64,000 nucleotides of DNA, taken from Dehalococcoidia bacterium. Its GTDB lineage: Bacteria; Chloroflexota; Dehalococcoidia; UBA6926. Made by a program: the position numbers and the translations under genes. The first letter of the stretch is position 1; every line of letters starts with the position of its first letter. The notes under the pieces are model-generated. The model worked only from the letters and a program-made list of their open reading frames with translations. It ran no database searches and had not been told where the DNA came from. Of this stretch, positions 16,722 through 55,197 are shown in pieces. Location: contig CBDEUZ010000007.1 in the NCBI GenBank assembly GCA_965243495.1, positions 30,817 through 94,816 on the forward strand, in the 5' to 3' direction.

Positions 16722-16741
16722 GGCTCCGTCCTTTCTCGCGA

Positions 16742-19974: not shown

Positions 19975-19984
19975 GGCACTCACC

Positions 19985-20464: not shown

Positions 20465-20543
20465 AGCGCGGTAAGTCTCCCCTCCTAATCGCACCTGTGG
20501 CGATGCTATTCCCACGCGGCGCGGGCGGTCAACACTTGACCGT

Positions 20544-30759: not shown

Positions 30760-30846
30760 GCCGAGGTGGCGGAACGGCAGACGCGCTGCGTTCAGGGCGC
30801 AGTGCCCCTAGCGGGCGTGAGAGTTCAAATCTCTCCCTCGGCACCA
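30760..30846 (+). tRNA. tRNA-Leu(CAG)
   Basis: Acceptor GCCGAGG/CCTCGGC, anticodon stem CTGCG-TTCAGGG-CGCAG, long variable arm, encoded CCA. Confidence 0.97.
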
Positions 30847-30892
30847 CACGACAGTCTGGGCAAATGTGGCCGAAGACGGCCATGAGTGACAC

Positions 30893-30970
30893 GCGCTTGT
30901 AGCTCAGTCTGGATAGAGCGCAGCCCTGCGGAGGCTGAGGCCGTGGGTTCGAGTCCCGCCAAGCGCGCCA
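30893..30970 (+). tRNA. tRNA-Arg(GCG)
   Basis: Acceptor GCGCTTG/CAAGCGC, anticodon stem CAGCC-CTGCGGA-GGCTG, TTCGAGT loop, encoded CCA. Confidence 0.95.
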
Positions 30971-31011
30971 CTTTCTCTCTCGTCAGTGCTATGGAGTACC
31001 CTGAGACGTGA

Positions 31012-31085
31012 GGGCGGCTAGCTCAGCTGGTTAGAGCGTCTGCTTTACACGCAGAAGGCCGGGGGTTCGAGCCCCTCGCCGCCCA
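31012..31085 (+). tRNA. tRNA-Val(TAC)
   Basis: Acceptor GGGCGGC/GCCGCCC, anticodon stem TCTGC-TTTACAC-GCAGA; CCA not fully encoded (ACCC). Confidence 0.96.
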
Positions 31086-31472
31086 CCCTCCCCGGATCGG
31101 CGGACAACGAGGCCGGATCCCGATGTTCCGTGTCTGCCGCGTCGGTGCCATTGCCCAGTAAGAAACCAGCAATCAATTTCCCACCTGAGCCGGTGAACTC
31201 CCTGCCGCCCATCTCTTGTTGGATCGGCTAGAACGCGCCAAACCAAACTGCCACGCTTCGCATCCGGAGCTGTATCAGCAAGCCCGTCCTGCTCGGCTTT
31301 CGTTCTCCCAAAACTCATAAATCCGCCCCATACGGGCCAACTCTGCGGCATTTTGCCCAATAATTACAAAAGGTGATGTTAGTTCGTTCAAATAGCGTCA
31401 AATAGTTACGGAGTAGTTATATTCAGTGTCTATAGTTATGCGCAGAATCGTAACTGGGTGGGGAGGTGTAAC

Positions 31473-33506
31473 ATGTCTCTCGTCCGAAGCACAACTGCGC
31501 GGAAAGCAACGTGGCCCGCAGCGATGGCGGCCATCGCTACCCTCATTACCCTCATCGCCTTGGCGACGTTGCTGATGGTCAACACAGCGCAAGCCCAATC
31601 CGATACGTCGGAGCCCGTCCTCATGTTGGGGAGTGTGAACGGGAATGGGCTGACCCTGGAAGTCAGCGAGGCCCTGGACATCGGCTCGGTGCCGACAGAC
31701 AGCGTGTTCGTGCTGCGCGAGGTAGAGAACGGCACGATCCCGACCCTGAACGGCACTGTCCGCCACGGCGAGAAGGTCACGCTGAATCTTGCTCGTGCCG
31801 CCGCGGAACCCGGGCCCCATCCCAACGCCATCCACGAGGTCACAGCCGCATCGTACGCACTGGGGAACGACGCCGGAGAGCCGCCTGGCGTGCAGAGTAT
31901 GCCTGTACTGCAAGACCCCGCCGCTGCGACAGCGACGCCGGAGGCAACGGCTGCGCCAACGCCGACTGCGACGCCTGAACCGACCGTCGAGGAACAGTGT
32001 ACTGAGGCAGTAGAGAATACACCCATGAGGGCATGGAGCAATCCGGATCCCAACACGCTGATTTCTGCGTGTATCGGCGCTGTCAACGCGGGACTTGGAA
32101 CTGCGCAGGAAATCGTCAATACCTTTGCGAATATCGATTTCTCAACCAACCTGAACAACATGGGCAACGCCTATCGAAACGCCGGTATCCCCGTAAACGC
32201 CGGTATCCCCGTTGCGAACGCGACGCCCGAGCCGGCTGGGTTGAATGATGCGCCCGGCTCGCCTCCCGTATCACAGGCGACACCCACGCCGCGTAACAGT
32301 GACAGCGGGCGTATCGCCACCCAAAGGACCAGTAGCGTGGCAGGGGGGCCTGCGGGATGTAACTCTCATCGCTTTGCGCGGATCATGAACTTCACCAACG
32401 TTCAGCAACGCGTCAGGATAGCGTCTGGCGCATTTTCCGAGAACATCCCGGGAGTGACGTGGACAGATGATGCGCCTGCGCAAGCCTCGACGGACGGCAA
32501 CACGGTGATTTACCCGCCCTACCGGTCCCTCAGGACTGAATCGTTCACTGAAACTGTGGAGTGGATGAGCCCTGAATTCAGTGTTCAGTCGGGTGAGACT
32601 CGCGCCGCTGCAATTGCTTGCCATACAGCCGAGGCGAAGAGGCAGGCGTACCTGTATGCAGCTGACAATGGGAAGGCCTGGGCCAATGCGACCGGCATGC
32701 GCATCGTTGTTCGACCGAGCGTCGATGTTCACGAGCGGGAACTCGACGGCAAGACGCTCATCTCGATCTCTGCCTTTGCGACCGTCTCGGGAAGGTACAG
32801 CGTTCTGAATGACCCCGATCGATACCATCGTGCCCATGGAGCAGTGAATGCTCTTGAGAGGGATAGAGTTCATCCCGGATCGCCGCGCGAGGCTTTCTTC
32901 ACCGAGGACGGCGAGCGCAAGCAGTACACGCATATTGACGGGCACAAGATGCGGATTCCGGGCGGTGGGGACGTTGAGATTCATCAGGACTCTTACCAGC
33001 AGTGCCCGCGAGGCACGAGCGACACGGCGCTCGCGTTCTATAAGCTGTTCGGGCAAGGTTCATGCCTCGTTGTTGAGACGACGACTCTGGATGAATGGTA
33101 CACGCTGAAGGGGCCTGTCGAGAGCAACCCGCTCTACGATCACCAGAGCCTCGTCTACAGGGGCACGACCTATCGCATGACCGGCAAGATTCACCAGATC
33201 AACCTGGACGGGACGATCGTGTTTGAGGTCGAAGTCCTCCCGCCGCCAACCTTCTCGACCAACTCTGGCGCGGATCAAAGCTGGACTTCCGGAACGGCGA
33301 TAACCAACATCACGGTTCCTGAAGCGACCTCTGAGTCAGCGGTCACGTATGGCGTTGTCGGTAGCCTGCCTGCTGGACTCTCGTTCAGCGCAACAACTCG
33401 TGTTATCAGCGGAACGCCAACAACTGCTGGATCAGGCACGATCACGATTCGTGCGACGAATGCCGGAGGCACTGCTGACTGGACGGTGGACTACACCATC
33501 ACGTAA
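31473..33506 (+). CDS. Secreted protein: signal peptide, SwmB-like repeat, PT linker, unknown core, C-terminal putative Ig (He_PIG) domain
   Basis: AQAQS signal cleavage; VNGNGLTLEVSEALD...VTLNLA; SLPAGLSFSATTRVISGTPTTAGSGTITIRATN; GGAGG SD before ATG 31473. Confidence 0.75.
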   Translation: MSLVRSTTARKATWPAAMAAIATLITLIALATLLMVNTAQAQSDTSEPVLMLGSVNGNGLTLEVSEALDIGSVPTDSVFVLREVENGTIPTLNGTVRHGEKVTLNLARAAAEPGPHPNAIHEVTAASYALGNDAGEPPGVQSMPVLQDPAAATATPEATAAPTPTATPEPTVEEQCTEAVENTPMRAWSNPDPNTLISACIGAVNAGLGTAQEIVNTFANIDFSTNLNNMGNAYRNAGIPVNAGIPVANATPEPAGLNDAPGSPPVSQATPTPRNSDSGRIATQRTSSVAGGPAGCNSHRFARIMNFTNVQQRVRIASGAFSENIPGVTWTDDAPAQASTDGNTVIYPPYRSLRTESFTETVEWMSPEFSVQSGETRAAAIACHTAEAKRQAYLYAADNGKAWANATGMRIVVRPSVDVHERELDGKTLISISAFATVSGRYSVLNDPDRYHRAHGAVNALERDRVHPGSPREAFFTEDGERKQYTHIDGHKMRIPGGGDVEIHQDSYQQCPRGTSDTALAFYKLFGQGSCLVVETTTLDEWYTLKGPVESNPLYDHQSLVYRGTTYRMTGKIHQINLDGTIVFEVEVLPPPTFSTNSGADQSWTSGTAITNITVPEATSESAVTYGVVGSLPAGLSFSATTRVISGTPTTAGSGTITIRATNAGGTADWTVDYTIT

Positions 33507-33887: not shown

Positions 33888-36869
33888 CTATTTCTCCAAA
33901 AACATAGTCACGTAGTCGGCGCTGACGTTTGGCATGGTGAGGCCGATTCCCGATAGCGCTTCGGCGAACTTGCTGATGTCGTAGACGCTGGTGTCCGACA
34001 GATACGGCTCTACTGAGTCCAGCGAACGGAGCAGCATCTTCAACTCAAGGTCATCATCGTGGTCGGCCGTTTCTTGTAGCCTCACCTTCCACTCCGCCAA
34101 CGGAACCCGTTCCGTGATGTGACCGTTGCGTTCCATGAGATCAAAGACCTTGTCCGCCGGAACCGGATCCTGTTGGACCACGTTGTAGACCCTCCCGAGA
34201 TGATCCGGGTCATTGGCGATCTTACTGATTGCAGAGACGAGGAAATCGACGGGGGTCATCTCAAAGAACCAGTCCGGCGCGTGGGGCGCGCTGCCGAGGC
34301 GGGCGCAGGCCTTGAGGATCAGCAGCAGAAAATCATTCGGATTACCCGTGCCCGTGCCACTGTGGTGGCCGATGTTGCCGGGTCGATACAGACACACCGG
34401 CAGTCCCCGTGAGACGGAATGCCAGACCAGCCGCTCTGCGACCCACTTCGACTGGTTATACCCCCCCTCCATCCGGTTCACCCAGGAATCAATCTCGTTG
34501 TTCTCCAGGTACGGGGTGGTGTCCCCACCGGGGAAGACGCCGTTGGATGAGATGTACTGCAGTGTCTTTGGCCTGCCGGTCGTGGCGAATCTGAGCACCT
34601 CTGTCGTGCCACCGACGGTGTGGGGCTTGGAGGCCGAATACGGGTAGACGTAATTGACAGAGGCGGCGCAGTGGAATACCAAATCGACCTTTTCGGCCAG
34701 CTCAAAATACTTGTCGCCGCCCAACCCCATTAGCGGCTGGGTGAGGTCTCCTGAGACAGTGATGATCCGGTCACTCTCGGATTGGCTGGGGAGCCCGTAG
34801 AATTTCAACGTCTCCAATACCCGATTGGACGTGCCACCCTCTCCGGCATCGCCGTCACGCGCCAGGCAATAGAACGTGGTATCCGGCCCTGTGGACCGCA
34901 TCAGCTGATCGAGCAGGAATGCGCCGAGGAATCCGGTCGTCCCCGTGACAAAGATGGAGGATGCCTCGCTCAACCGCATAAAGCTAACCTGGCCTTGGGG
35001 TGTAATCTCCGGGTCGAGCTGTGCATCCTGGGCCAGTGTGGCGCCGGTCGCCGCTCCCCCTGCCCCGCCATTTTCGAGGTATGCCGCCAGTTCACCGATG
35101 GTGGGGTACTCGTACACCTCGACACCGCTCAGTTCTCTTCCGAATGTCTCCTCTATGGCAATCGTGAGAGACATGCCCGCCAACGAGTGGCCGCCGAGAT
35201 CAAAGAAATTCCAGTCGTCCTCAAGATCGTCGAGGTTGAGTTCCAGCGTCTCGGCCCAGAGTTCCCGCAGGGCCGCGCGCCGCTCGTTCGCCGTGGACTT
35301 CTCTGTCAGCCTTGTTCGCCGCCCGGCAGGCGATGCCCCGTTGCGCAGCGACGGCAAGGCCTTCCTTTGCAGCTTGCCGGTCTGCTGATTGATCGGCAGG
35401 GCGTCCATTTCAATGAAGTGAGACGGGACGGAGTAGAGAGGCAGATACCGCTCGAGGAGATTTCGCAGATCCCTGCTCGCTCCACTTCGAGCGTCCAGTT
35501 TCCAGAAGGCGTTTGGGCCTCGAACAACATACGCAACCAATCGCTTACTGGTCTCGTCCAGGTCTTCAACAACAACGGCCGCATCCGCGGCGTCACAGTG
35601 TCGGCGCAGCATCTCTTCAATGGCGCCGAGATACACGGTGTATCCCCTGATCTTGACCATGGAATCGGTCCGGCCCACGATCGTCGTCATGCCATCAGGC
35701 GCAACTTCTGCAAGATCACCAGTAGCGTAGTAGCGCTCGCCATCCAGAGTGACAAACCTCTCGGCATCCAGATCGGGCCTCTTGAGGTAGCCACGCGCCA
35801 CGCCCTGACCGCCGATGAGCAGCTCCCCTACACCACTCGTCTCCACGGCGGAGCCATCCTCCGGGCGTACGCGGAGCTCCACGCCGTCCATCGCATAACC
35901 GACCGGGCACGTGTCCATCCCATCCAGCGACAGATCGGTCAGGTCAATGGTGCAGACATCGTGGGTCTCACTGATGCTGTAGGTGTTGAACAAGCGGGCG
36001 TTTGGCGGCAGGACGTCCCGGGCTTGCCTGAGCAGGCTGACAGGCACCACCTCTCCGTTCAGCCAAACGACGCGCAGTGACGACATCTGTTGCCGGAGTT
36101 GCTCATGATCTGCTGAGTTCAGGGCGCTCTGCAGCAATGACGGCGTGAACAGAATCTCGGAAAGCTGATTCTCTGAGATGTACCTGGCGAGCGTCCTCGG
36201 CATGAATATGACTTCATCCGGAATCACATACACCGTCCCGCCCTTTAGAAGCGGCCGCAGGAACTCCCAGGGAAAGAAGATGTTGCAGCCGACACGGTCT
36301 CCAACGCGGTAGGAACTGTACGTGTACCTGGCGTCGTAGGAGGACATCATCGCTCCCACACTCAGCATCACGCCTTTCGGATCACCGGTGGTACCGGAGG
36401 TATAGGGGATGAATGCCAGATCATGACTATCAGTGTTCGTCGCACGGTCTGCCGGCTCATATCCTCGCCAGGAGTGGTCACTATCAACGGGGAGTATCAG
36501 AGTCCCATTGAACTCAGCCAGTTTGGGCAGGAATCGCTCTTTGGTGAGCACGACCTTCGGCTGCGCCTCAGCTACGATGCCGTACAGCAGGGGTTCAGGT
36601 GAGTCAACGGCCATGGGCATGAATGCCCCGCCGGCCTTTAGTGTTGCGATGGCCCCGACGATATATTCAAAGCACGTATCCATGAATATGCCCACGGGAT
36701 CATCGGTTCCCACCCCGCAGTTTCGAAGCCAGGCGCCCAGAGTGTCCGTTGCCCGGTTCAGTTCGGCATACGTCATCTGCCCATTTCCGAATACAATTGC
36801 GGTGGCATCCGGGGTGATTTCAACTTGTTTTTCAAATAATTGATGGACGCTATAGTTCACTAAAACCAT
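33888..36869 (-). CDS. Stand-alone NRPS-like reductase, A-T-R architecture
   Basis: A: YTSGTTGDPKG, TGD, KIRG, TGKL; T: FFDLGGHSL; R: VTGTTGFLG, YNQSKWVAE, YRPGNI. Confidence 0.92.
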   Translation of the reverse strand: MVLVNYSVHQLFEKQVEITPDATAIVFGNGQMTYAELNRATDTLGAWLRNCGVGTDDPVGIFMDTCFEYIVGAIATLKAGGAFMPMAVDSPEPLLYGIVAEAQPKVVLTKERFLPKLAEFNGTLILPVDSDHSWRGYEPADRATNTDSHDLAFIPYTSGTTGDPKGVMLSVGAMMSSYDARYTYSSYRVGDRVGCNIFFPWEFLRPLLKGGTVYVIPDEVIFMPRTLARYISENQLSEILFTPSLLQSALNSADHEQLRQQMSSLRVVWLNGEVVPVSLLRQARDVLPPNARLFNTYSISETHDVCTIDLTDLSLDGMDTCPVGYAMDGVELRVRPEDGSAVETSGVGELLIGGQGVARGYLKRPDLDAERFVTLDGERYYATGDLAEVAPDGMTTIVGRTDSMVKIRGYTVYLGAIEEMLRRHCDAADAAVVVEDLDETSKRLVAYVVRGPNAFWKLDARSGASRDLRNLLERYLPLYSVPSHFIEMDALPINQQTGKLQRKALPSLRNGASPAGRRTRLTEKSTANERRAALRELWAETLELNLDDLEDDWNFFDLGGHSLAGMSLTIAIEETFGRELSGVEVYEYPTIGELAAYLENGGAGGAATGATLAQDAQLDPEITPQGQVSFMRLSEASSIFVTGTTGFLGAFLLDQLMRSTGPDTTFYCLARDGDAGEGGTSNRVLETLKFYGLPSQSESDRIITVSGDLTQPLMGLGGDKYFELAEKVDLVFHCAASVNYVYPYSASKPHTVGGTTEVLRFATTGRPKTLQYISSNGVFPGGDTTPYLENNEIDSWVNRMEGGYNQSKWVAERLVWHSVSRGLPVCLYRPGNIGHHSGTGTGNPNDFLLLILKACARLGSAPHAPDWFFEMTPVDFLVSAISKIANDPDHLGRVYNVVQQDPVPADKVFDLMERNGHITERVPLAEWKVRLQETADHDDDLELKMLLRSLDSVEPYLSDTSVYDISKFAEALSGIGLTMPNVSADYVTMFLEK

Positions 36870-37041
36870 CTTGTCTTCCCCCACCACCTCGGACCTGACC
36901 TCTAGGGAACAGGTAACCAATGAATCAGCTAAATGTTGATGGTCGATTTTACAGGAACGTTAAAGCAATGTAAAATCCAGATGTGGCTTTACGCCGTTGG
37001 CTTGGTCGGATGTCTCACCTAAATGGAAGGGATGGTCTTTT

Positions 37042-37731
37042 ATGCAGTTTGAGTCGCTAGAGTTTTATAAGGAGCATGGCAAGAGATACTCCCAGATGTC
37101 TCATGAATTTTCGCATTCGAATTACGACGAGATATCCCACCCCAAGCTGACAGGCGATATGGCTCTGCTGAATCGCGCAACTGACCTGGCGTCCGGCAAA
37201 CGCAGTCTGGATGCCGGATGCGGCGCCGGAGCCCGAGACGTGGCCCTGCTCCACTCCCGGGGTTTTGACGCGTACGGCATTGATGCCGTGGAGGAGAACA
37301 TCAATCTGGGCAGAAAGCTGCACCCGGAGATCGCCAACAAGATCAGCGTCGCCGACTTGAGGGAGCCCCTGGAGTTTGAGTCTGAGTTCTTCGATCTGAT
37401 TCTCTGCAATGCAGTCATCCAGCATCTGTCGCCGGAGGACGTTGAAACCACGACGATCCCGGAGTTTGCCCGGGTGTTGGCTCCCGGAGGCGTATTGCAG
37501 CTGATGTTTAAGGTCGGGTCCGGCATAGCAGAGGTGAGTGACCCGGCATTCGGGAACGACGGTGTGGACAGGCTATTCCAGCTCTACGAAGAGAAGCACC
37601 TGCTGGACATTCTTGACGAGTCCGGCTGCTCTCTCATTGAGGAGGAAGGCAGCGACAAGCTTGGCGGCCTGTTGTACTTCACCGACCACAAGCCGATGCG
37701 CTATTGCGTCTTCTGGGCCAGAAAGAACTAG
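37042..37731 (+). CDS. Class I SAM-dependent methyltransferase
   Basis: LDAGCGAG, GIDA, FDLILCNAVIQHL, RVLAPGG. Confidence 0.9.
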   Translation: MQFESLEFYKEHGKRYSQMSHEFSHSNYDEISHPKLTGDMALLNRATDLASGKRSLDAGCGAGARDVALLHSRGFDAYGIDAVEENINLGRKLHPEIANKISVADLREPLEFESEFFDLILCNAVIQHLSPEDVETTTIPEFARVLAPGGVLQLMFKVGSGIAEVSDPAFGNDGVDRLFQLYEEKHLLDILDESGCSLIEEEGSDKLGGLLYFTDHKPMRYCVFWARKN

Positions 37732-37743
37732 AACCGCTGCTGG

Positions 37744-38712
37744 CTAGAGCTGAAGAGGCTGCGCCTCAAGGGATGCGGCGGTTTTCTGGACATCACTGAC
37801 CGACACTTCCGCAATTCCGGTCATTCCGCACTTGAGCCCCGCATAGGCGGCGGCGAATCGCCCGATTTCCTCCAGCGACCAGCCCGCCCACAGCCCGTAC
37901 ATGACGCCGGCTGAACAGGCTGCGCCCGCTCCATTGCCGTCCACCACGTCCACCTGCGGAGGCCTCACGAGATATGCCTCATCGCCGTGCGCAACTACGC
38001 ACCCATCCGCCCCCAGGGTCACCACAGCCATATCCACCCCACGGTCTATCAGGCTGCGGGCTATGTCGGAAGGATCACCGGATGCTTCGGGAATATCCAG
38101 GGAGACCTGGCAGATGGTGGCTTCTCCAATCATGTCCGTGATCCACGTGTCACCATCGTACTGAGATTCCAGGTTGAGATAGACTGGCACGTCCTGGGAG
38201 ACGGCGTCCCGTACGGCATGAACGACGCTGGCGCCGTCATACCAATCGACATACAGTAGTCCCGCGTTCTTGAGTTGGGAAGGATCGGGCGGCCTCAGTT
38301 CTGCCATGGAGGCGGGATCTCTCCGCTGAAAATACGTTCGGCCTCCGTCGGGGTCGATAATCGACACTTCGAACGGAGTCGGCCAACCTTCCTTGACGTG
38401 CTGCCGGACATTCACGCCCAACGAATCGAGTTGCTCTTTGACGCTCTCGCCGCGCTGATCATCTCCTAGCGGTGACGTGATGAGACGTGTTGGAACGTCC
38501 CAATGAGTCAGGACGCTTGCAGCGATGGCGGCATCATCACCCAGTGATTCCAATGAGTCCAGGATCGGCGCCCCGCCATTGTGCTCGGGCAGTTCATCCA
38601 CCTTAAGTAAAAGGCAGTGAGTCAGTAATCCAAAACAGACCACGTCTCCCTTGCCAACGTGGGCCGGAAGTCGGTTTCCATTCGCGCGTGCTCCGTTGCT
38701 TGAAGTAGACAT
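37744..38712 (-). CDS. PfkB/ribokinase-family kinase
   Basis: VVTLGADG and anion-hole DGNGAGAAC (variant of DTxGAGD); probable start MSTSSNG. Confidence 0.85.
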   Translation of the reverse strand: MSTSSNGARANGNRLPAHVGKGDVVCFGLLTHCLLLKVDELPEHNGGAPILDSLESLGDDAAIAASVLTHWDVPTRLITSPLGDDQRGESVKEQLDSLGVNVRQHVKEGWPTPFEVSIIDPDGGRTYFQRRDPASMAELRPPDPSQLKNAGLLYVDWYDGASVVHAVRDAVSQDVPVYLNLESQYDGDTWITDMIGEATICQVSLDIPEASGDPSDIARSLIDRGVDMAVVTLGADGCVVAHGDEAYLVRPPQVDVVDGNGAGAACSAGVMYGLWAGWSLEEIGRFAAAYAGLKCGMTGIAEVSVSDVQKTAASLEAQPLQL

Positions 38713-38934
38713 TACGGTTTTCCCCCAATCGCTCCCCTCTTGGTGCCAGACGTTCTGGTGGCAACAGTTGGAAATGAGGGAGCCAACGTTTGCCGATGTT
38801 AACGCACTTAAGAAAGATTGTCCATTCAGGCAGTTGCCGCTTGTCCCCGTAGACTCGCGCGCCACGTTTGACGGCGGGCGCATGATGGCCGTTCAATGGC
38901 CTCAGTCGGAGCAAAGTGAATTGTGGAGTCAAAC

Positions 38935-39633
38935 ATGAAACTGAATGGACGGCGGGTCATTGTGACCGGGGGCAGTCGCGGCATAGGATACCGGATCAGC
39001 GAACTCTTCCTCGCTGAGGGTGCTCACGTTCTGGCTGTGTCCCGGAACTCCGAGAAGCTCACCGAAGCACAAGCACAGCTCCCTGCCCTTGCCACTCTGT
39101 CTGCCGACGTTTCAATCGCATCGGACATCGACCGCGTCGTTGCGTGGGCTGAGAACGAATGGGGCGGCGTCGACATCCTGATAAACAACGCGGGTGTGCT
39201 GGATCCAAGTGAGCGAGGCCTAACGGAAGGGCCTGACGAAATCTTCTTGTCCACCCTCCAGGTGAACGTTACTGGCGTGTATCTATGCACCAAGCGGTTG
39301 TTGCCGCTGCTGCTTCGGTCGGACGACCCTCGCATCGTCAACGTGGGTTCGATGTCGGGCATCCTTGGGCCGGGACTGCGCGGCTCCTACGGTGTGTCCA
39401 AGGCGGCCCTGCACGCGCTTACGATCGCCACCGCCAATGAGCTGCGAGGAAAGGTTCCCGTCAACGCGCTTTCGCCCGGTTGGGTCAAGACAGATATGGC
39501 CCCCACCGGCCCCGGAGACCCCAGATCATCGGCGCAGGGGGCGCTGTGGATTGTCACGCGCCCGCCGGACGTGACAGGCAAGCTCTTTCGCGGCAACCGC
39601 ATTCGTTCCTGGTCTACACGTTCAACATCATAG
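38935..39633 (+). CDS. Classical short-chain dehydrogenase/reductase
   Basis: VTGGSRGIG, LINNAG, YGVSK, PGWVKTDM. Confidence 0.93.
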   Translation: MKLNGRRVIVTGGSRGIGYRISELFLAEGAHVLAVSRNSEKLTEAQAQLPALATLSADVSIASDIDRVVAWAENEWGGVDILINNAGVLDPSERGLTEGPDEIFLSTLQVNVTGVYLCTKRLLPLLLRSDDPRIVNVGSMSGILGPGLRGSYGVSKAALHALTIATANELRGKVPVNALSPGWVKTDMAPTGPGDPRSSAQGALWIVTRPPDVTGKLFRGNRIRSWSTRSTS

Positions 39634-39876: not shown

Positions 39877-41016
39877 TTAGCCTGCTATCTTGGCACAAAC
39901 TGCGTAGACGGTGAGCGTCCAGTTGCCAGCGACTTCGTTGATCTCTGTGGCGCTTGCTTCCCATCCTGTGGGAACTCCACCAACCACTCCCACCGGGCGG
40001 GATTCTGTTATGGCTACGCCGCCACTAGAGGAATCTACTTCCGCGCCGCCGGAGATTGCAGAGAAGCCTGAGCCAACCGACGAGCAAAGCACGGATTCAC
40101 TCTTGTCAGCATCGCTGTTCGATGAGCTTTGCGACCTAGCGATCCGAAGGTCGGATACTCCCGGCTCGCCTTGCTCGCCCTGAGGACCATGCGGGCCTGC
40201 CGTGCCTGTAGCTCCTGTGGCTCCGCGTTGTCCTGCCTCACCTTGCGGCCCGCGTTGTCCTTCCGCACCTTGCGGGCCAATCGGTCCTTCTGGGCCCTGA
40301 GGTCCTTCGGGGCCCGTTAGGCCTTGCTCGCCTTGCTGACCTCGTGGTCCCTCAGGTCCGGTTGGGCCTACCGCGCCTTGTGGGCCTTCCGGTCCTACAG
40401 CGCCGGCCGGTCCGGGCAATCCTTGTGGACCCCTATCACCTTGTATGCCTTGTGGGCCTTGTGGGCCTGCCTCACCTTGTGCACCGCGAGGCCCAACAGG
40501 TCCCTGCGATCCGGCCGGCCCTGGGTCTCCCTTGGGTCCTTCAGGTCCGCCTTCAGGTCCCCGAGGTCCTTGCACGCCCTGAGGTCCTGGCACGCCCTGA
40601 GGTCCTTGTATTCCCTGAGGCCCTGGAGGTCCTACATTACCTTGCGGGCCTGTCTCACCTTGCGGGCCTGTCTCACCTTGCGGGCCTATCGGCCCTGTCG
40701 GACCGGTCGCGCCCCGAGGCCCTTGAGGACCACCCGGGTCTCCCTGGGGTCCTGCCGGTCCTGTGGCTCCTGCCGGTCCTGCCACGCCTTGTGGTCCTGA
40801 CGGTCCTGCCTCGCCCTGAGGTCCTGCCACGCCCTGAGGGCCCTGAGCCCCGGCCGGTCCGGGCTCACCCTGCGGTCCCTGAGCTCCTGCAGCTCCTTCG
40901 CATGCAGCTGCAAGCATCATGACTATCGCAAAGGCCGAGATAGCCACAATCGCCGCCCAGCTTCGCACGGGCGCAATCGATTTCACATACTTTGACAAGG
41001 CTGGCATTATACCCAT
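39877..41016 (-). CDS. Collagen-like triple-helix lipoprotein
   Basis: Lipobox LAAACEG; about 82 Gly-X-Y triplets in three blocks; Cys-bracketed C-terminal domain ending YAVCAKIAG. Confidence 0.9.
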
Positions 41017-41377
41017 TCCTTTCACCTCACCCCAACGCTCTGTTTCAATCCTCAAGCGAAATACCATGAATGTCAAGGACTTCGCTCGACTATCTATGAC
41101 CTCGCCATAAAGGAGACGGACTCACGCGGCGCACGGACTCGCGGCCTTCTCGATTGGCATCACATCTTTGACCGCGTGACCTGCTTGCCGGAGGCGCTCC
41201 CAATCAGAATAGCAGTATTCGTGCTTCCTTGACACCCCCGCCGCCTCTAAAATCTGAGTTCCGCATCATCCAAATCGAACCAGCAAGGGAACCCGGACAA
41301 ACGCTACTTCCGTTGAACCTGTCCCTCCCGCTACATCGTGAACGGAAGAGAACTTCACACGGCACCGCCCTGCGCCG

Positions 41378-42517
41378 TCAGTAGATTCCGGGCATGATGC
41401 GCCATTTGACACGGGACTTATATTCAGCCCATTTCTCAGCCCCGTACTTCTCCTCGCAGTGCGTTTCATCGCTGCGCTGGCGCCACGTGAAGAATGACAC
41501 GACGAACACGAAGTATGCCCATGCCCAGGGATTCAGGAAGTGGCCGAACGAGAGGCCAACTGCGAAGGACAAGAATCCCTCACCCATGTAGTTGAAGTGG
41601 CGGGCGACGCCCCAGAGGCCCGTGTACAGTATCTTGCGCTCGCCGGCCTCGATGTACTTCGGCTCGATGATGCCGAGGAACTTGCGATCCGGCCACCTCT
41701 TAAAGGTGTATTTCTGGAGGTTGGCGCCGCGTCCAATACTCCAGCCCAGGAGGAAGAGCGCGGTGGAGCCAATGAGCCAGACGTAGGTCCAGAAGTCGGA
41801 GAATCCGGGATGCGGGTGCGCGGCCATACCCCAGAGCGGCAGGATGAACACCCAGCCGTAGATGACGATTCCGCCCCAGAACATCTTGAATCCCATGCGT
41901 TCGTAGATCAGATCGTAGGTGTAGAGCTGGACACGCTCCCAGATGAAGTAATCGAACACGTAGAAGGTGAAGAACGCTGCATAGAGGAAGACACCGGGGT
42001 TGAAGTCGCTTCCAAATTGGTCGTAGTGCCACGCCGCGCCGGACATGGCGTTGAGCGACAACATAGTGCCGCCGACGACGTAGAAGTACATCTTGATATC
42101 GACGCGTTCCCCGAATAGGGATATCTCTCGCGCTCGTCCTTCCCAAAGAGCGAGCAACGGGTTCTTGATGTCTCCCTGCGGCTGGCTATAGACCGCGACT
42201 ATGGACATGATCAGGGTGAAGACGGTGCCGCCGGCGATGGCGTACAGGGACGACCGATAGAACCAGTCACGCGGCATACCCGTGATTTCCGTCGCCCAGA
42301 TGGCGACCGCAAGGAGGAAGACAAGGATGCCGTTCAGTCGATAGTTGCGTGGTTGGCCGGTTTCCTGATCAACGACATACCCGGGTACTTTTCTGCCGGG
42401 CAGAATAAACTGTGCTAAGAGGAATGCGGCGAAGATGGCAAGGGGCGTGAAGAACCCCGCGACGGCCTCGGCGCCCGAAAGCTCGAAGAGGTGCTCGATA
42501 CCAAGCCATTCAATCAT
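41378..42517 (-). CDS. ERG4/ERG24-family (delta14-sterol reductase-like) membrane reductase
   Basis: YRLNG, GANLQKYTFK, GLWGVARHFNYMGE, DETHCEEKYG..W.EY..RVKWRIMPGIY. Confidence 0.88.
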   Translation of the reverse strand: MIEWLGIEHLFELSGAEAVAGFFTPLAIFAAFLLAQFILPGRKVPGYVVDQETGQPRNYRLNGILVFLLAVAIWATEITGMPRDWFYRSSLYAIAGGTVFTLIMSIVAVYSQPQGDIKNPLLALWEGRAREISLFGERVDIKMYFYVVGGTMLSLNAMSGAAWHYDQFGSDFNPGVFLYAAFFTFYVFDYFIWERVQLYTYDLIYERMGFKMFWGGIVIYGWVFILPLWGMAAHPHPGFSDFWTYVWLIGSTALFLLGWSIGRGANLQKYTFKRWPDRKFLGIIEPKYIEAGERKILYTGLWGVARHFNYMGEGFLSFAVGLSFGHFLNPWAWAYFVFVVSFFTWRQRSDETHCEEKYGAEKWAEYKSRVKWRIMPGIY

Positions 42518-42557
42518 GACGGAAGACCCCTCTCTCCGATGACGAGGTTATTATGCC

Positions 42558-43115
42558 CTATTCAGGTTTTGCGTAGGTGAGCCGCCATTCTTCCCCGAAT
42601 TCTTCATAGATAAACACCATGTAGATCAAGCCTCCCTGGAAACGCGCGGTGTGCCTGACTTCCCACCTGCCCGGGGCGATCTCCGTGGGCGGAGACGTTT
42701 CCTCCGCAGTTATAGCCAGATTCAGGTTCCTGAAGGGCTCCATGTTTGTCCGGATCTCTTCCACTTCCTCTTGCCAGTAGTCTTCCGAGTAGAAGACCGC
42801 CAGCGCATCCGGGTCATACATGTTGTAAACGTCCCATAGGCGCATGGTCTTTTCACTGAGGTGCCCGGCGATGTCCGTTGATTCGCCAGACGCGGGTTCC
42901 TCTTCCGCTTCTACGGTTGGTGTGGGCTCCACCTGAGGCGCTTCAGTGGCCGTCGGGGCGGGGGCACGTGTTTCAGAATCGTTGCTGTCGGTTGTTTCTT
43001 CGGCTGATCCGCCGCACGCGGCCAGGACAAGGAGCAGTGCCAGGATAGCCGCCAGCACCATCCCTCTCTGCAACAGACCGGCCTTCCTGTGTAACGGCAT
43101 TTGGCGTATGGACAC
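42558..43115 (-). CDS. Lipoprotein, unknown function
   Basis: LLLVLAACGG lipobox, acidic Pro/Thr linker, small C-terminal (NTF2-like?) domain. Confidence 0.7.
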   Translation of the reverse strand: MSIRQMPLHRKAGLLQRGMVLAAILALLLVLAACGGSAEETTDSNDSETRAPAPTATEAPQVEPTPTVEAEEEPASGESTDIAGHLSEKTMRLWDVYNMYDPDALAVFYSEDYWQEEVEEIRTNMEPFRNLNLAITAEETSPPTEIAPGRWEVRHTARFQGGLIYMVFIYEEFGEEWRLTYAKPE

Positions 43116-43449
43116 TCCACTACCTCCCGGGCAGGCTCTTCTTGTTTACCAGGTATTGTCCTGCCCTCGCCCACATACACCATGAGCAGGTTGTCATTGT
43201 CAACCCTGCGCCGCTGTCAGGAAAAGACCATATCGGAAGTATTGCATTTCCCGGTAGCACGTATACTTCCCAAAGTGATCGGAGAGCATGCGCCCTTAGT
43301 TATTATCGACGACGAGGAATCAGATCCCGCGTGCCGGTGAATTTTCACTGTCTGGGCATGTGCCGGTTTCTTCACAGTTTTGAAAATCGCGCATGCCGCT
43401 GTATCCTTATCGTAAAGCAATCTCACTTGCCCGCAGATTGGAGCACGCT

Positions 43450-43965
43450 ATGGAAGCACAAGCATCTGTGTCCGGCGCCCAGCAAGGCGGCCTTGTTGGT
43501 GAGGGTCAGTACCAGATTTATTCGTACAAAATCGACATTCAATCAAGCCGCGCGCCTGAGTTTGTGGATGTCACAGATTGGGTACAGGATATCGTGGAGG
43601 ACACCGGCGTCCAGTACGGTTCGGTGCTCGTCTATACCAAGCACACCACAACCGCCGTTGTCATCAATGAATTGGAGCCGCTGCTTCTCGAAGACGTTGG
43701 CCACATCCTTGAGCATTTCGCGCCGCGCGAGGGTGGATATCAGCACAACGATTTCGAGATTCGGACCGTCAACATGAACGACGACGAGCCCCCCAACGGC
43801 CATGCCCATTGCCAGCAAATCGTCATGGGGAGTAGCGAGACGATTCCCATCATCGCTAATCGACTCCAGTTCGGCATGTACCAGCGGATCTTCTTCATTG
43901 AGCTGGATCGCCCGCGCCCGCGCCAGCTGATCATCCAGGTGATGGGAGTCCAGGGAGAGAAGTAA
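43450..43965 (+). CDS. YjbQ/UPF0047 family protein
   Basis: HTTTAVVINE, YQHND, NGHAH, FGMYQRIFFIELDRPRPR. Confidence 0.88.
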   Translation: MEAQASVSGAQQGGLVGEGQYQIYSYKIDIQSSRAPEFVDVTDWVQDIVEDTGVQYGSVLVYTKHTTTAVVINELEPLLLEDVGHILEHFAPREGGYQHNDFEIRTVNMNDDEPPNGHAHCQQIVMGSSETIPIIANRLQFGMYQRIFFIELDRPRPRQLIIQVMGVQGEK

Positions 43966-44849
43966 TGCGGATGAGCGAGGCAGCTAAAGTTCCTGCCTCA
44001 CTTGAGTCCGCTTACAGCGAGTGCATCGCCATTGCGCGATCGCACTACGAGAATTTCTCTGTAGCGTCGCGCCTTATGCCACGTGACATGCTTCCTCACG
44101 TTGCCGCCATCTATACCTACTGCCGCGGTGTGGATGACCTCGGCGACGAGGCAACAGGAGACCGCCTTGCGCTGCTGGATGAATGGGCGGCGCAGCTGGA
44201 GCAATGCTACTCCGGCTCCCCGACCGAGCCTCGATTTCTCGCTCTCCAACACACCATCTCGGCCTTTGACATAGAGCGGCAGCCGTTCCTCAATCTCATC
44301 GAGGCCAATCGGATGGATCAGGTCAACACGCGTTACGCAACATACGAAGACGTGCTGCACTACTGCCGTCATTCCGCGAACCCCGTTGGCGACTTGTATC
44401 TCACCTTGATCGGCAAGAACGACCCGGAGCGGCGTGCGCTGTCAGATGCCACCTGCACCGCCCTCCAGCTCGCCAATTTCTGGCAGGACGTTAATCGTGA
44501 CTATGCCACGGGCCGAATTTACCTCCCGCAGGAGGACATGCGCCGATTCGGGTACACGGAGGAAGAGCTTGCGCGAGGCGAGTGCTCGCCCGCTTTTCGC
44601 GATCTCATGGCGTTCCAGGTGGACCGGACACGACGGCTGTTCGAGGAGGGCTTGCCACTTGTCGATACGCTTGACGGCATCTTCAAACTGCACGTCAAGT
44701 TATTCACGCTGGGCGGCCTCCGCGTCCTTGACGCCATCGAGGGCCAGAACTACGACGTGCTTTACAAACGTCCAACGGTGACAAAGGCACGTAAGACGTG
44801 GCTGCTGGCAAGGACGTGGCTTGGGATGAAGATCACGAGGCAGATCTAA
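43965..44849 (+). CDS. hpnC: Squalene pathway enzyme HpnC (hydroxysqualene synthase)
   Basis: HYENFSVAS, DDLGDE, YCRHSANPVG, QLANFWQDV..D...GRIYLPQED. Confidence 0.88.
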   Translation: MRMSEAAKVPASLESAYSECIAIARSHYENFSVASRLMPRDMLPHVAAIYTYCRGVDDLGDEATGDRLALLDEWAAQLEQCYSGSPTEPRFLALQHTISAFDIERQPFLNLIEANRMDQVNTRYATYEDVLHYCRHSANPVGDLYLTLIGKNDPERRALSDATCTALQLANFWQDVNRDYATGRIYLPQEDMRRFGYTEEELARGECSPAFRDLMAFQVDRTRRLFEEGLPLVDTLDGIFKLHVKLFTLGGLRVLDAIEGQNYDVLYKRPTVTKARKTWLLARTWLGMKITRQI

Positions 44850-44861
44850 AGGCGACGCATC

Positions 44862-45749
44862 ATGGTATCGCTAGCTGCGCCCCTTGAGGCATACGAGCAC
44901 TGTCGCAGGATAACGCGCGAGGCGGCGGGCAATTTTTACTATGCGTTTGTCACACTGCCACGCCACCGACGACGCGCCATGTACGCCGCCTATGCGTACT
45001 GCCGCCTCTGTGATGACCTCTCCGACGATGACCTGCCAATCAACGAGAAGACCCAACGGATTCAGGGCATCGACACATTGCTGGAAGAAGCGCGGGCCGG
45101 GAATCCCGACGGCCCGGTATTCGAGGCTCTGGCACATGCCGCTGCGGAGTACAACATTCCCTACGAAGACCTTATTGAGGTGGCGCGCGGTGTTGAGATG
45201 GATCTCACCATCTCCCGCTATGAGACCTTTGATGACCTCAAGACGTATTGCTACCGTGTGGCGTCGGTGGTCGGGCTCATCTGTATTCAGATCATGGGCT
45301 ACACGGATCAGCGCGCTCGCGAATACGCCATCGATCTTGGGCTAGCCATGCAGCTCACAAACATCCTGCGGGATATCCGCGAGGACGCCGAACGCGGCCG
45401 CATCTACATCCCACAGGAGGACTTGCGACGATTCGGCTACAGCGAGGAAGACCTGCTGGCGGGCACTGTGAACGATCAGTTCAGAAGCCTGATGGAATTC
45501 GAGGTGGCTCGCGCCAGGGAGTATTTCGAGCGCGGAAAGCGGCTGCTCAAGCTCCTGCCCGTCCGCACGCGCGCCTTCCCTGCCGTGCTCGGCGGACTTT
45601 ATGGCCGAGTACTCGATAGAATCGAAGCACGGAACTACAACGTCTTTGAAGGTCGGGTTGGCCTGTCAACCCGCGAGAAAGTCGGGTTGGCGGTGCGACT
45701 GTGGATTCAGAGTTACATCCCGATGGAGCGCGTAGCCACTGCGTGGTGA
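44862..45749 (+). CDS. hpnD: Presqualene diphosphate synthase HpnD
   Basis: NFYYAF, DDLSDD, YCYRVASVVG, QLTNILRDIREDAERGRIYIP. Confidence 0.88.
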   Translation: MVSLAAPLEAYEHCRRITREAAGNFYYAFVTLPRHRRRAMYAAYAYCRLCDDLSDDDLPINEKTQRIQGIDTLLEEARAGNPDGPVFEALAHAAAEYNIPYEDLIEVARGVEMDLTISRYETFDDLKTYCYRVASVVGLICIQIMGYTDQRAREYAIDLGLAMQLTNILRDIREDAERGRIYIPQEDLRRFGYSEEDLLAGTVNDQFRSLMEFEVARAREYFERGKRLLKLLPVRTRAFPAVLGGLYGRVLDRIEARNYNVFEGRVGLSTREKVGLAVRLWIQSYIPMERVATAW

Positions 45750-47077
45750 TTGGCGGCGGGCTTGCCGGCCTCTCCGCCGCTTGCGCCCTCGCTGAACGCG
45801 GCGTCACCGTCACCCTGATTGAGCGCCGCAACTACCTTGGTGGGCGCGCCTTTTCCTTTATTGATCCGCACACGGGCATGGAGTTGGACAACGGCCAGCA
45901 CGTCTTCCTCCGCTGCTGCACTGAATACATCGACTTCCTCAAGAGGATTGGCGCGTTCAGTCAGACAACGCTTCAGGAGCGGCTGCGCGTACCCGTGGCC
46001 AATAGGGCCGGAAAACTAGGCGTCCTGTCATCAACGCGGTTCCTCCCCGCGCCGCTCGACCTCCTGCCCTCGCTCCTGCGCTATCCACACCTTGGCTTCA
46101 GAGACAGGCTGCGGATCATCCGCGGCATGATGAGCATCCGCCGCACGAACAGGGAACACGAACGTGAGCGGTTGGAGTCCATGTCTTTTCATGATTGGCT
46201 TTTACAGAACGGGCAGAATGACAGGACCATCGTGGCTCTCTGGGAACTCATCACCCTGCCAATACTTAACGACACCATCGACGCCGCCAGCGCCAACATG
46301 GGCGTCATGGCATTCCAGGACTCCCTGTTGGCCGGTAAGGGCATGGCTGATCTCGGTTATTCGCGCGTGGGGCTATCAACGCTGGTCAGTGATGGAGCGC
46401 GTCATTACATCGAATCGCGCGGCGGCAAACTCATCATGGGCCGCCGCGTGAGTGACCTTCACGTAACAGAAGGCCGTGTCACGGGAGTCAGGGTTGGCGA
46501 GGAAACCATTGACGCGGATGCAGTGATCAGCGCTGTGCCATGGGACGGACTTGAGAGGCTGCTAACCAGCGAGGACACGGACGCCTCTCTATCGGCCGTC
46601 AGTCCACCACAGCTGGAATGGGCGCCAATCGTCGGCCTTCACATCGGCTATGACCGCCCGGTGATGAATGACCCATTCCTGACGGTTGTGGACAGCCCAA
46701 TTCAGTGGATATTCAATCGCTCTCTCATGCAGGAGTCAGCCGATGCAGACTCACGCTTGTTGGTGTCGATTAGCGCCGCATGGCGTGAGGCGGGCATGAC
46801 AGAGGAGGAGCTGCGTGACCTGGCTGAGGCGGAGCTGCGCGCAGTGCTTCCGGAGACACGCAATGCCTCAATGACATTCTTCCGCGTCGTCAAGCAGCCG
46901 CAAGCAACCTTTCGATGCCTTCCCGGAATCCAGGAGCAGAGGCCGTCGCAATCAACTAACGTGCTCGGCCTCTTCCTCGCGGGAGACTGGACTCAGACGG
47001 GGTGGCCGGCGACGATGGAATCCGCCGTCCGCAGTGGAAATCTCGCGGCCGCTACCGCGGCCTCCTCACTCTCCTGA
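45701..47077 (+). CDS. hpnE: Hydroxysqualene dehydroxylase HpnE (FAD-dependent)
   Basis: VIGGGLAG, LGGRA, LDNGQHV, AGDWTQTGWPATMESAVRSG; follows hpnCD. Confidence 0.87.
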   Translation: MDSELHPDGARSHCVVIGGGLAGLSAACALAERGVTVTLIERRNYLGGRAFSFIDPHTGMELDNGQHVFLRCCTEYIDFLKRIGAFSQTTLQERLRVPVANRAGKLGVLSSTRFLPAPLDLLPSLLRYPHLGFRDRLRIIRGMMSIRRTNREHERERLESMSFHDWLLQNGQNDRTIVALWELITLPILNDTIDAASANMGVMAFQDSLLAGKGMADLGYSRVGLSTLVSDGARHYIESRGGKLIMGRRVSDLHVTEGRVTGVRVGEETIDADAVISAVPWDGLERLLTSEDTDASLSAVSPPQLEWAPIVGLHIGYDRPVMNDPFLTVVDSPIQWIFNRSLMQESADADSRLLVSISAAWREAGMTEEELRDLAEAELRAVLPETRNASMTFFRVVKQPQATFRCLPGIQEQRPSQSTNVLGLFLAGDWTQTGWPATMESAVRSGNLAAATAASSLS

Positions 47078-47087
47078 GACTATCCTC

Positions 47088-48311
47088 TTACCAGGGGCTG
47101 GAGTTCTCGGAATAAACGTGATCCGGCATGTTGTAGTGAATATCCGTTTCCGCAACCGTTGCGGCATCCAACAGGCCGGTGAATTGCGTGAAGTTATTCT
47201 GGTTGGTGAGGCGTGGAATCCACCGTGCCAGCAGGTTGTTGTACTTGGCCTGGAACCTGAAGAACGGAAGAACGCCAAAAACCGGCGTCCTCGGGTAGCG
47301 GAGCCTGTCAGCCATATCCGCCCCGATCACGGCGCGGGAAATCCGAAAGACATAGTTGGCCAGCTTCTGCCGTTCCTTCGGGTCTTGAATACCCACAACC
47401 AGCGGCGCGGAATTGATCAGGGCGTGAGCCATGACAACCCCTTCCTGGCTGGGGCTTGGCTCGCACATGACGGCAATTCTGTAGAGCTCAAGTGCCTCTT
47501 CTTCATCCTTGAACAGGATCGTCTCTGGAATGCCCATGAGATGGCCCGTGTAGCGCCACACGGCCATGAAGCTCTTTCTCTCCTCATCCGTGTATTTCGC
47601 GCCGAGCCGCTTCATGTGATAGAGAAGGCGCGCGGAGAATCCTGCAATCGCCATCCCCAGGTGCGCTGAACTCAGTGGCACGCCCCACGCACCTGTATCC
47701 CAGTCTTCGGATGCCTCCAGCAGCTTGCGGACCTGCGCGTGAACCAAACGCAGGCGCATGCTCAGCTTGAGACCGTCACCGGCGCGATCCAGCCCTCCCG
47801 GAAGGAAGGACTCCAGCATGTGCCGATTGTTCTGCATCAGGCGTCGCACGCCCTGGTCACGAACCCGGCCGGTAATGAAGAACGACTTACTGATGTTTGT
47901 CGTGAAACCTTCGACGAGCGTTCCACCCACAAACGCTGCGAGGATAATGCGCGCGTTGCGTAGAAACATACGCGATCCCGGCATGAATTCATCGTAGTTC
48001 ACCCAGTCCGGGGGGGTATCCAGTCCGCCAACGAGACGCTGAACGCTCGCAGGAGCATCCTTGATGACACTGCCGTCCGGATTATCCATTACCGCCCGAA
48101 TGAGCATGGCGGATTGCGCGCGATCCATATCACCGAGTTCCGCGATGACAGCATCCGCCTCGGGGTCGGCGATCAGATGATGGGCAATGTAGTTGTCCGC
48201 GACGGCCTTATTCGCTTTACTGGCATGTCCGTACCCCTCGATGTAATCGGTGGGAATAGTCAAACCGTACGAGCCGTCATACTTGCTTTCCGGGGGCAAT
48301 GATGCGGTCAT
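47088..48311 (-). CDS. DUF2236/MpaB/Lcp-like oxygenase
   Basis: RLVHAQVR, WGVPLS, WRYTGHLMG pattern typical of the family. Confidence 0.8.
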   Translation of the reverse strand: MTASLPPESKYDGSYGLTIPTDYIEGYGHASKANKAVADNYIAHHLIADPEADAVIAELGDMDRAQSAMLIRAVMDNPDGSVIKDAPASVQRLVGGLDTPPDWVNYDEFMPGSRMFLRNARIILAAFVGGTLVEGFTTNISKSFFITGRVRDQGVRRLMQNNRHMLESFLPGGLDRAGDGLKLSMRLRLVHAQVRKLLEASEDWDTGAWGVPLSSAHLGMAIAGFSARLLYHMKRLGAKYTDEERKSFMAVWRYTGHLMGIPETILFKDEEEALELYRIAVMCEPSPSQEGVVMAHALINSAPLVVGIQDPKERQKLANYVFRISRAVIGADMADRLRYPRTPVFGVLPFFRFQAKYNNLLARWIPRLTNQNNFTQFTGLLDAATVAETDIHYNMPDHVYSENSSPW

Positions 48312-55173: not shown

Positions 55174-55197
55174 CGGATTTCTCGGGAGCGCCTTGCC

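Follow-up and report, generated by a model that had tools for sequence, protein, structure and literature searches.

A stand-alone A-T-R protein of Dehalococcoidia shares ancestry and substrate-cage residues with the fungal glycine betaine reductase ATRR

Introduction

The fungal enzyme ATRR (A. nidulans AN5318) is a nonribosomal peptide synthetase (NRPS)-like glycine betaine reductase, with adenylation (A), thiolation (T) and two reductase domains in the order A-T-R1-R2, which converts glycine betaine to choline and so revealed that the pathway from choline to betaine can also operate in reverse (Hai, Huang & Tang, 2019, bioRxiv 10.1101/559534). The enzyme is specific for glycine betaine and strictly size-selective, and its substrate cage is made up of F201, W204 and W270 with the anionic residue E304 (Hai, Huang & Tang, 2019). 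The atrr genes were reported to be "exclusive to eukaryotes", and those of fungi lack a conserved neighbourhood (Hai, Huang & Tang, 2019). In marine surveys of betaine-to-choline conversion, transcripts of atrr homologs were assigned mainly to eukaryotic groups. Here we describe a bacterial A-T-R gene related to atrr, at positions 33888–36869 (minus strand) of a 64,000-nucleotide stretch of DNA from a Dehalococcoidia bacterium (assembly GCA_965243495.1, contig CBDEUZ010000007.1, positions 30,817 to 94,816), which is referred to below as the window.

Two further kinds of described enzyme bear comparison with the window protein. The diatom protein PtNRPS1, also of the order A-T-R1-R2, is reported to reduce L-tryptophan to tryptophanol (PMC13194791). 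It belongs to the same wider family and has the FFxW motif, and some diatom homologs also lack R2 (PMC13194791); unlike the window protein it has Phe as its third cage residue, a pocket described as larger, a eukaryotic host and a different reported class of substrate. For the reductase (R) domain, the best solved relative is MxaA (PDB 4u7w), and MxcG is also among the closest characterised proteins. The likeness to MxaA is confined to the R domain: MxaA and MxcG end multi-module polyketide synthase (PKS)/NRPS assembly lines, whereas the window protein stands alone, and its A domain is related to those systems only at the general NRPS level.

The original prediction for this locus, made from the DNA letters alone, took the gene to be a bacterial homolog of ATRR and knew of no characterised bacterial example; in agreement with that, no account of an ATRR-type enzyme from bacteria came up in the literature that could be searched. 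The window enzyme resembles fungal ATRR in the A-T-R1 order, in the F/W/W cage with an acidic residue beside it (here Asp in place of Glu), in the loss of Asp235, in a specificity code of the form x-F-W-L-W-N-x-acid-x and in the lack of a biosynthetic gene cluster around it. Judged by sequence, fold, ancestry and cage appear to be those of ATRR, and what differs is a bacterial host, the lack of R2, a pocket of an Asp type and conserved partners of its own, a methyltransferase and a PfkB-like protein.

Results

Architecture and conservation of the A-T-R protein

On the minus strand, the open reading frame (ORF) begins at either 36920 (TTG) or 36869 (ATG) and ends at 33888. Initiation at the ATG gives a protein of 993 amino acids, which fits the ortholog median of 992 (n = 79), and a Shine-Dalgarno-like GGGGGAAG lies a few bases upstream of it, so that 36869 is the likely start. 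A Pfam scan of the protein finds AMP-binding (residues 12–362), AMP-binding_C (417–495), PP-binding (533–598) and NAD_binding_4 (641–881) and no condensation (C) domain, and the stand-alone A-T-R organisation that had been read from the sequence is thereby borne out, coordinates included. The gene appears to be monocistronic, since its downstream neighbour is convergent and its upstream neighbour divergent.

The A domain (residues 1–508; 35346–36869, delimited by Pfam and alignment) has all of its core motifs intact (SGTTGDPKG, YATGD, GRTDSMVKIRGY and GKLQRK), and it contains the three unusual segments to which the original prediction drew attention, DRVGCNIFFPWEFLRPL, WLNGEVV and TYSISETHDV. 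The T, or carrier, domain (Pfam PP-binding; 35076–35273) carries the motif GGHSL with the phosphopantetheine-attachment residue Ser562 (codon 35184–35186). In the thioester reductase domain (residues 639–991; 33897–34955) we find the NADPH motif TGTTGFLG and the catalytic pair Y804/K808; over the same residues the thioester reductase model TIGR01746 is matched at 264 bits, above its cut-off of 213. The protein stops after NAD_binding_4, and a C-terminal domain of the R2 type, a short-chain dehydrogenase (SDR) resembling YdfG, is absent by Pfam, leaving it one domain short of the four of ATRR.

A scan of one genome per bacterial and archaeal species with family-specific peptides gave 253 confirmed loci. 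The best 80 of these, all in metagenome-assembled genomes (MAGs) of Dehalococcoidia/Chloroflexota, are the 80 loci or sequences referred to throughout. The gene is present in at least 80 Dehalococcoidia species genomes, some of which have two copies and several of which derive from bins of sponge symbionts. The closest of these loci share synteny with the window. In 79 of the 80 it is intact, at about 992 amino acids and ending in a stop codon. Across the set the median identity is 67%, and just 27% of the positions never vary, among them F198, W201, L240, W269, N271, T296, D304, K499, the phosphopantetheine Ser and the reductase Lys; the reductase Tyr is kept in 79/80. Ser562, TGTTGFLG and Y804/K808 are each retained in 79–80 sequences, save for position 3 of the NADPH motif (T, A or S).

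None of the database proteins that we retrieved spans R1 and R2, and the full-length sequences came from the metagenome scan. Many database entries of the family (P0394, P0398, P0408 and others) are A-only or R-only proteins of 360–440 amino acids on megabase-scale contigs; the longest contig listed for P0398 is 4,309,579 bp, equal in length to the record behind locus L048, in which the full-length ORF is intact. Gene calls in this family are often broken up, and this may have concealed it from searches by domain architecture.

The substrate pocket retains the ATRR cage

The pocket segment between motifs A4 and A5 (residues 189–308; 35946–36305, minus strand) can be mapped onto the published ATRR cage by spacing. 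We took the cage residues from the preprint (Hai, Huang & Tang, 2019) and validated them via residue numbering on fungal sequences, which were retrieved with the specificity region of more distant relatives in the family as query. The fungal segments given in the original prediction match real fungal sequences: A. fumigatus P0300 has DRVACNVFFIWEILRPL and WLNGEVV, while both Aureobasidium P0281 and L155, a full-length sequence of the fungal type, have YSACETHE. From the first F of FFxW to its W, on to the W of WLNGEVV and then to the last E of ETHE, the spacing in P0300 and P0281 is 3/66/34, exactly that of the published residues 201/204/270/304. The same spacing recurs in P0075 and L155, and in L155 (1277 amino acids, 76% identical to the A. 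fumigatus fragment) the cage residues stand exactly at these four numbers.

Residues F201/W204/W270/E304 of ATRR align with F198 (codon 36276–36278), W201 (36267–36269), W269 (36063–36065) and D304 (35958–35960) of the window protein, where the spacing is 3/68/35. All three aromatics are kept, and the cage expected by the original prediction does align with that of ATRR.

Specificity codes were obtained via alignment to a GrsA-PheA reference segment, which was checked to reproduce the published code DAWTIAAIC; positions 235 and 236 were read by hand from the FFPW motif (CNIFFPWE). In PheA numbering (235–331 plus 517) the code of the window protein is I-F-W-L-W-N-T-D-V(-K) and that of fungal ATRR V-F-W-L-W-N-C-E-I, so that the two share the residue at five of the nine variable positions and differ conservatively at the remaining four. 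Position 235 is occupied by Ile197 in the window protein and by Val in fungal ATRR, whereas it is Asp in 12/12 ordinary NRPS domains, whose codes are unrelated. The loss of Asp235 argues that this is not an ordinary alpha-amino-acid pocket. The three signature motifs CN[VI]FFxWE, [WY]LNGEV and YSxSE[TC]H[DE] occur in every family member that covers the region, with variation at the Trp position in a few eukaryotic members, and in 0 of about 30 ordinary NRPS A domains. A sequence search of the PDB found no structure of ATRR.

Phylogeny places the window protein in a sister clade of ATRR

Trees were built by neighbour joining with 200–300 bootstrap replicates; Lys2 and carboxylic acid reductases (CARs) were excluded by the scores of hidden Markov models, given in the Discussion, and not placed in the tree. 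All signature-bearing sequences form one clade against ordinary NRPS A domains with about 100% bootstrap support, and monophyly with ATRR-type sequences still has 100% support once the A4–A5 segment (residues 189–308) is removed. This points to shared ancestry rather than to convergence confined to the pocket. The A4–A5 segment itself is 44% identical to fungal ATRR, as against 22–30% to ordinary NRPS domains; bootstrapping on this segment alone was not used, as its distances are saturated.

The family divides into two well-separated clades, both with 100% bootstrap support, which we call Asp-type and Glu-type after the acidic cage residue. The Asp-type clade holds the window protein and its Dehalococcoidia relatives and, more distantly, sequences from Nitrospinales, Desulfobacterales, Tectomicrobia and assembly GCA_964656755.1, while the Glu-type clade unites fungal ATRR with sequences from Rubrobacter/Actinomycetota and from high-GC soil contigs. 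The window protein is thus in the sister clade, outside the one that includes the fungal enzyme. It is colinear with the full-length L155 over 986 residues (35.7% identity, E = 4e-176), and its R domain is 36% identical to R1 of ATRR. Its own clade aside, the R domain is closest to the R domains found in the other bacterial ATRR-type group, and on these comparisons it appears to co-evolve with the A domain. The homology to ATRR originally proposed is thus supported by common ancestry and the retained cage, with the qualifications that the protein lies in a sister clade, is 35–36% identical, lacks R2 and has Asp in place of Glu.

A split ATRR system in the Glu-type clade

The bacterial A-T-R genes of the Glu-type clade lie on high-GC soil metagenome contigs and in MAGs of Rubrobacter/Actinomycetota. 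They encode proteins of about 950–1050 amino acids, end in a stop codon, have the same cage and are 38–43% identical to the window protein, from which they differ in keeping Glu at the acidic position. At nine Glu-type loci (L123, L125, L132, L133, L136, L143, L146, L147 and L089:10001-13914) a separate SDR, 55–65% identical to fungal R2, starts about 80–90 bp downstream of the A-T-R gene. The match to R2 is full-length in seven of the nine; in L136 it is cut by the contig end and in L089 it is frameshifted. The order A, T, R1, R2 is also seen on a frameshifted long-read contig that has bacterial neighbours. No methyltransferase or PfkB partner was found at the Glu-type bacterial loci.

The ATRR enzyme system thus appears, by sequence, to exist in bacteria as two genes, a split A-T-R and R2. 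The fused fungal ATRR groups with the split locus L147 at 93% bootstrap, inside the Glu-type clade with its 100% support, and for this reason the fungal gene looks like a fusion of the split system. The grouping suggests that fungal ATRR may have arisen by gene fusion, possibly after transfer.

Conserved partner genes and a putative shared promoter

In an unsupervised census of neighbours at the 80 loci, only two genes proved to be linked to A-T-R, one for a methyltransferase and one for a PfkB-like protein. The first gene (37042–37731, plus strand) encodes a class I S-adenosylmethionine (SAM)-dependent methyltransferase of 229 amino acids from the ATG at 37042 (Pfam Methyltransf_11/25; the ORF also opens with a TTG at 36997). 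Its homologs are present in 48–50 of the 80 loci, almost always divergent from A-T-R, and in some genomes the gene is relocated yet still adjacent. A profile of its orthologs searched against the PDB retrieves 4krh (E = 5e-11), followed by 4ine, 5wp5, 5wp4 and the Plasmodium enzymes; phosphoethanolamine/phosphomethylethanolamine N-methyltransferases (PMTs) hold the top three ranks and several lower ones (E = 5e-11 to 1e-7), with a margin of about 10 bits (46 against 36 bits) over unrelated small-molecule methyltransferases. The alignment to PMTs covers positions 35–203 of 228, reaching well past the core that binds SAM and taking in the IQH motif. The protein falls below all NCBIfam cut-offs. 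The putative methyltransferase is thus most similar to the PMTs, though weakly so. Nematode PMT-2, plant PMT1/2 and Plasmodium PMT build the trimethylammonium head group; the partner is a single-domain protein of 229 residues.

The second gene (37744–38706, minus strand; the ORF extends to 38883) encodes a protein of about 320 amino acids with a PfkB/ribokinase fold (Pfam PfkB), and it is found in 34 of the 80 loci, where it abuts the methyltransferase gene. The catalytic Asp of the GAGD motif is replaced by Ala, giving GAGA (codon 37921–37923); this aligns with the GAGD of the solved kinases 3pl2, 3h49, 1tyy and 7ag6, and the change is invariant in 11 orthologs. The protein may be a pseudo-kinase or a ligand-binding protein. 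We also considered a role as choline kinase, which is unsupported, as the catalytic Asp is missing.

Between the A-T-R and methyltransferase genes lies a perfect 9-bp inverted repeat, GATTTTACA-N15-TGTAAAATC (36945–36977). Each strand reads TTTACA-N17-TAAAAT, which matches the sigma-70 consensus at 10/12 positions in both directions. The repeat is unique in the window, with 0 expected by chance, and it recurs exactly in 16 related loci, with arms that are conserved and flanks that drift. We interpret it as a putative symmetric bidirectional promoter, or an operator, common to the two genes. Because RNA polymerase would fit the palindrome in only one orientation at once, A-T-R and the methyltransferase may compete or be co-regulated.

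Other neighbours were considered and set aside. An SDR of 236 residues (38923–39633, plus strand; Pfam adh_short) was rejected as an R2 acting in trans and is no conserved part of the module, with at best weak homologs in only 6 of the 80 loci and 29.5% identity to fungal R2, the level of a generic SDR; it is 29% identical to an SDR beside a distant homolog. Beside distant homologs, betaine- or glycine-related neighbours turn up singly (gcvTHP with an SDR in L005, a GMC oxidoreductase in L007) and are not conserved.

Discussion

We think it probable that the window protein is an NRPS-like carboxylate reductase that would work like fungal ATRR minus its last domain, on glycine betaine or a close onium acid. 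In the mechanism that we propose, the A domain would bind a small carboxylate, most likely glycine betaine, by its quaternary ammonium (or similar onium) head group, which would lie in the aromatic cage of F198, W201 and W269 with D304 behind it. It would then adenylate the substrate with ATP and attach it through a thioester to the phosphopantetheine arm at Ser562, and the R domain would reduce the thioester with NADPH to betaine aldehyde. As to the substrate, glycine betaine is the most economical guess, because the cage aromatics are identical, five of the nine code positions are the same and the partner methyltransferase resembles enzymes that make the trimethylammonium group. The housekeeping chromosomal context with no biosynthetic cluster, a setting that ATRR shares, also counts for an ATRR-like role. 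The product might be that of a two- or a four-electron reduction: the R domain itself may continue to choline, or an unlinked dehydrogenase may do so. The R domains of MxaA and MxcG carry out four-electron reductions. A single animal TR domain does the same (PMC11869996), and with these three precedents choline could form without R2. N-methylation and reduction are probably parts of one quaternary-amine pathway, since A-T-R and the PMT-like methyltransferase are proposed to be co-expressed from the shared palindromic promoter.

Several observations weigh against glycine betaine reduction. In the pocket, the acidic residue is Asp304, one methylene shorter than Glu304 with the charge kept; there are two extra residues between the cage elements in comparison with fungal ATRR; and position 322 is Thr where the fungal enzyme has Cys. 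Given that ATRR is strictly size-selective, the Asp-for-Glu change, Thr322 and the insertion could shift the specificity. Overall identity to fungal ATRR is only 35–36%, and outside the pocket the A domain is 32% identical to ATRR as against 33–37% to ordinary NRPS domains. The wider family is not monofunctional, given the diatom enzyme reported to reduce tryptophan. An R domain that went no further than the aldehyde would leave the fate of reactive betaine aldehyde unexplained in a protein without R2, and within 10 kb of the gene in the 80 genomes we found no R2 ortholog, only generic SDR matches of 25–30%. Around distant Asp-type homologs the neighbourhoods are inconsistent and hold no consistent betaine or choline genes, and the 64-kb window contains no betaine transporter, choline-using gene or phosphopantetheinyl transferase.

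The pocket differences bear most directly on the possibility that the same chemistry acts on another onium acid, such as beta-alanine betaine, dimethylsulfonioacetate, dimethylsulfoniopropionate (DMSP), proline betaine, gamma-butyrobetaine or arsenobetaine, in a cage enlarged or reshaped by Asp and the insertion, with a methyltransferase that would produce this compound or alter it. [quoted passage not shown] Yet the three cage aromatics and five of nine code positions are those of ATRR, the remaining four are conservative, Asp and Glu carry the same charge and nothing in the neighbourhood indicates a specific alternative. We therefore regard a different onium substrate as possible though unlikely.

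The example of PtNRPS1 raises the prospect of an aromatic or other amino acid reductase, in which the aromatics would stack on a ring instead of caging an ammonium group. As a member of the wider family PtNRPS1 retains FFxW and the Glu, and a eukaryotic subgroup with Tyr or Phe for the third cage Trp sits inside the family tree. In the diatom enzyme, however, the third cage position is Phe285 and the pocket is rearranged and larger according to its authors, whereas W269 of the window protein is invariant in 80/80; the window protein also has no Asp235 for an alpha-amino group, and its partner resembles N-methyltransferases that act on small amines. An amino acid substrate is for these reasons improbable.

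That the protein is a Lys2, a generic CAR or the terminal module of a secondary-metabolite NRPS, which share the A-T-R order and of which MxcG, Lys2 and CAR are among the NCBIfam matches, is very improbable: MxcG scores 480 against a cut-off of 2300 bits along the whole protein, Lys2 (TIGR03443) 295 against an equivalog cut-off of 1030 with its best stretch at residues 378–938, and CAR (NF041592) 170 against an equivalog cut-off of 1300 with its best stretch at residues 348–933, the last two mainly in the T-R part; the protein has no C domain, the 64 kb hold no other NRPS/PKS gene or tailoring cluster, and the A domain is monophyletic with ATRR. The grouping with ATRR instead of Lys2 or CARs, on which the original prediction had staked its claim, is upheld by these scores and by the 100% bootstrap against ordinary NRPS domains.

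Returning to the reading of the window protein as an ATRR-like reductase of glycine betaine or a close onium acid, a more ambitious scheme can be drawn for the two divergent genes together. The PMT-like enzyme would exhaustively N-methylate glycine or another small amino acid to its betaine, and A-T-R would then reduce this to betaine aldehyde or choline, giving a hitherto unknown bacterial choline-type route, independent of phospholipid N-methylation, in abundant marine and sponge-associated Dehalococcoidia, with fungal ATRR derived from a bacterial split operon by fusion. Here the order of methylation and reduction and the physiological role are both conjectural, and we hold the scheme as a whole to be speculative and rather doubtful.

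Relatives of ATRR with the same trimethylammonium cage are now known from Nitrospinales, Desulfobacterales, Tectomicrobia and Actinomycetota as well as from at least 80 species genomes of Dehalococcoidia. If glycine betaine is what they reduce, bacteria could add to the betaine-to-choline flux in the ocean and in sponges, the split and R2-less bacterial forms would give a concrete scenario for the origin of the fused fungal enzyme, and the natural Asp/Glu pair would provide a test of how a cation-pi pocket sets substrate size. The family could also be a source of compact bacterial enzymes with which to produce quaternary-ammonium aldehydes or alcohols.

Other features of the window

The rest of the window is ordinary chromosome, with a nuo operon, molybdenum hydroxylases, molybdenum cofactor (Moco) and pyrimidine genes and tRNAs; no biosynthetic cluster and no Pcs was found in the 64 kb. 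An Rfam search of the window gave no riboswitch and three tRNAs only, whose genes stand in a row at 30760–31085 on the plus strand. Two paralogous molybdopterin hydroxylase large subunits (CODH/xanthine-dehydrogenase family) are encoded together with FAD, 2Fe-2S and CoxG subunits at 14391–20987, and the Moco biosynthesis genes for MoaA and MoaC lie at 54676–56238. At 10942–13275 a Ser/Thr protein kinase domain is fused to a PQQ-type beta-propeller in a protein of 777 amino acids.

Two genes in the window have no homolog in any of the 80 loci. One (31458–33506) encodes a protein of 682 residues that combines Thr/Pro/Ala-rich linkers with a membrane or signal segment at the N-terminus and a He_PIG Ig-like domain at the C-terminus, and is, for want of homologs, taken to be strain-specific; the other (39877–41076) encodes a eukaryote-like protein of 399 residues in which collagen triple-helix repeats form five stretches (Pfam E = 3e-38).

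Downstream of the latter, an ERG4/ERG24-family (sterol-reductase-like) membrane protein is encoded at 41378–42517. At a distance of 1.4 kb, at 43965–47077, stand an amine-oxidase gene and two genes for squalene/phytoene synthases, which resemble HpnC/D/E of squalene synthesis. The ERG4/ERG24 and HpnC/D/E-like genes may form a sterol- or hopanoid-type lipid cluster. An MpaB/Lcp-family oxygenase gene (47088–48311) follows the squalene-type genes, and the group from 41378 to 48311 is conserved at 86–97% in 8–13 syntenic loci.

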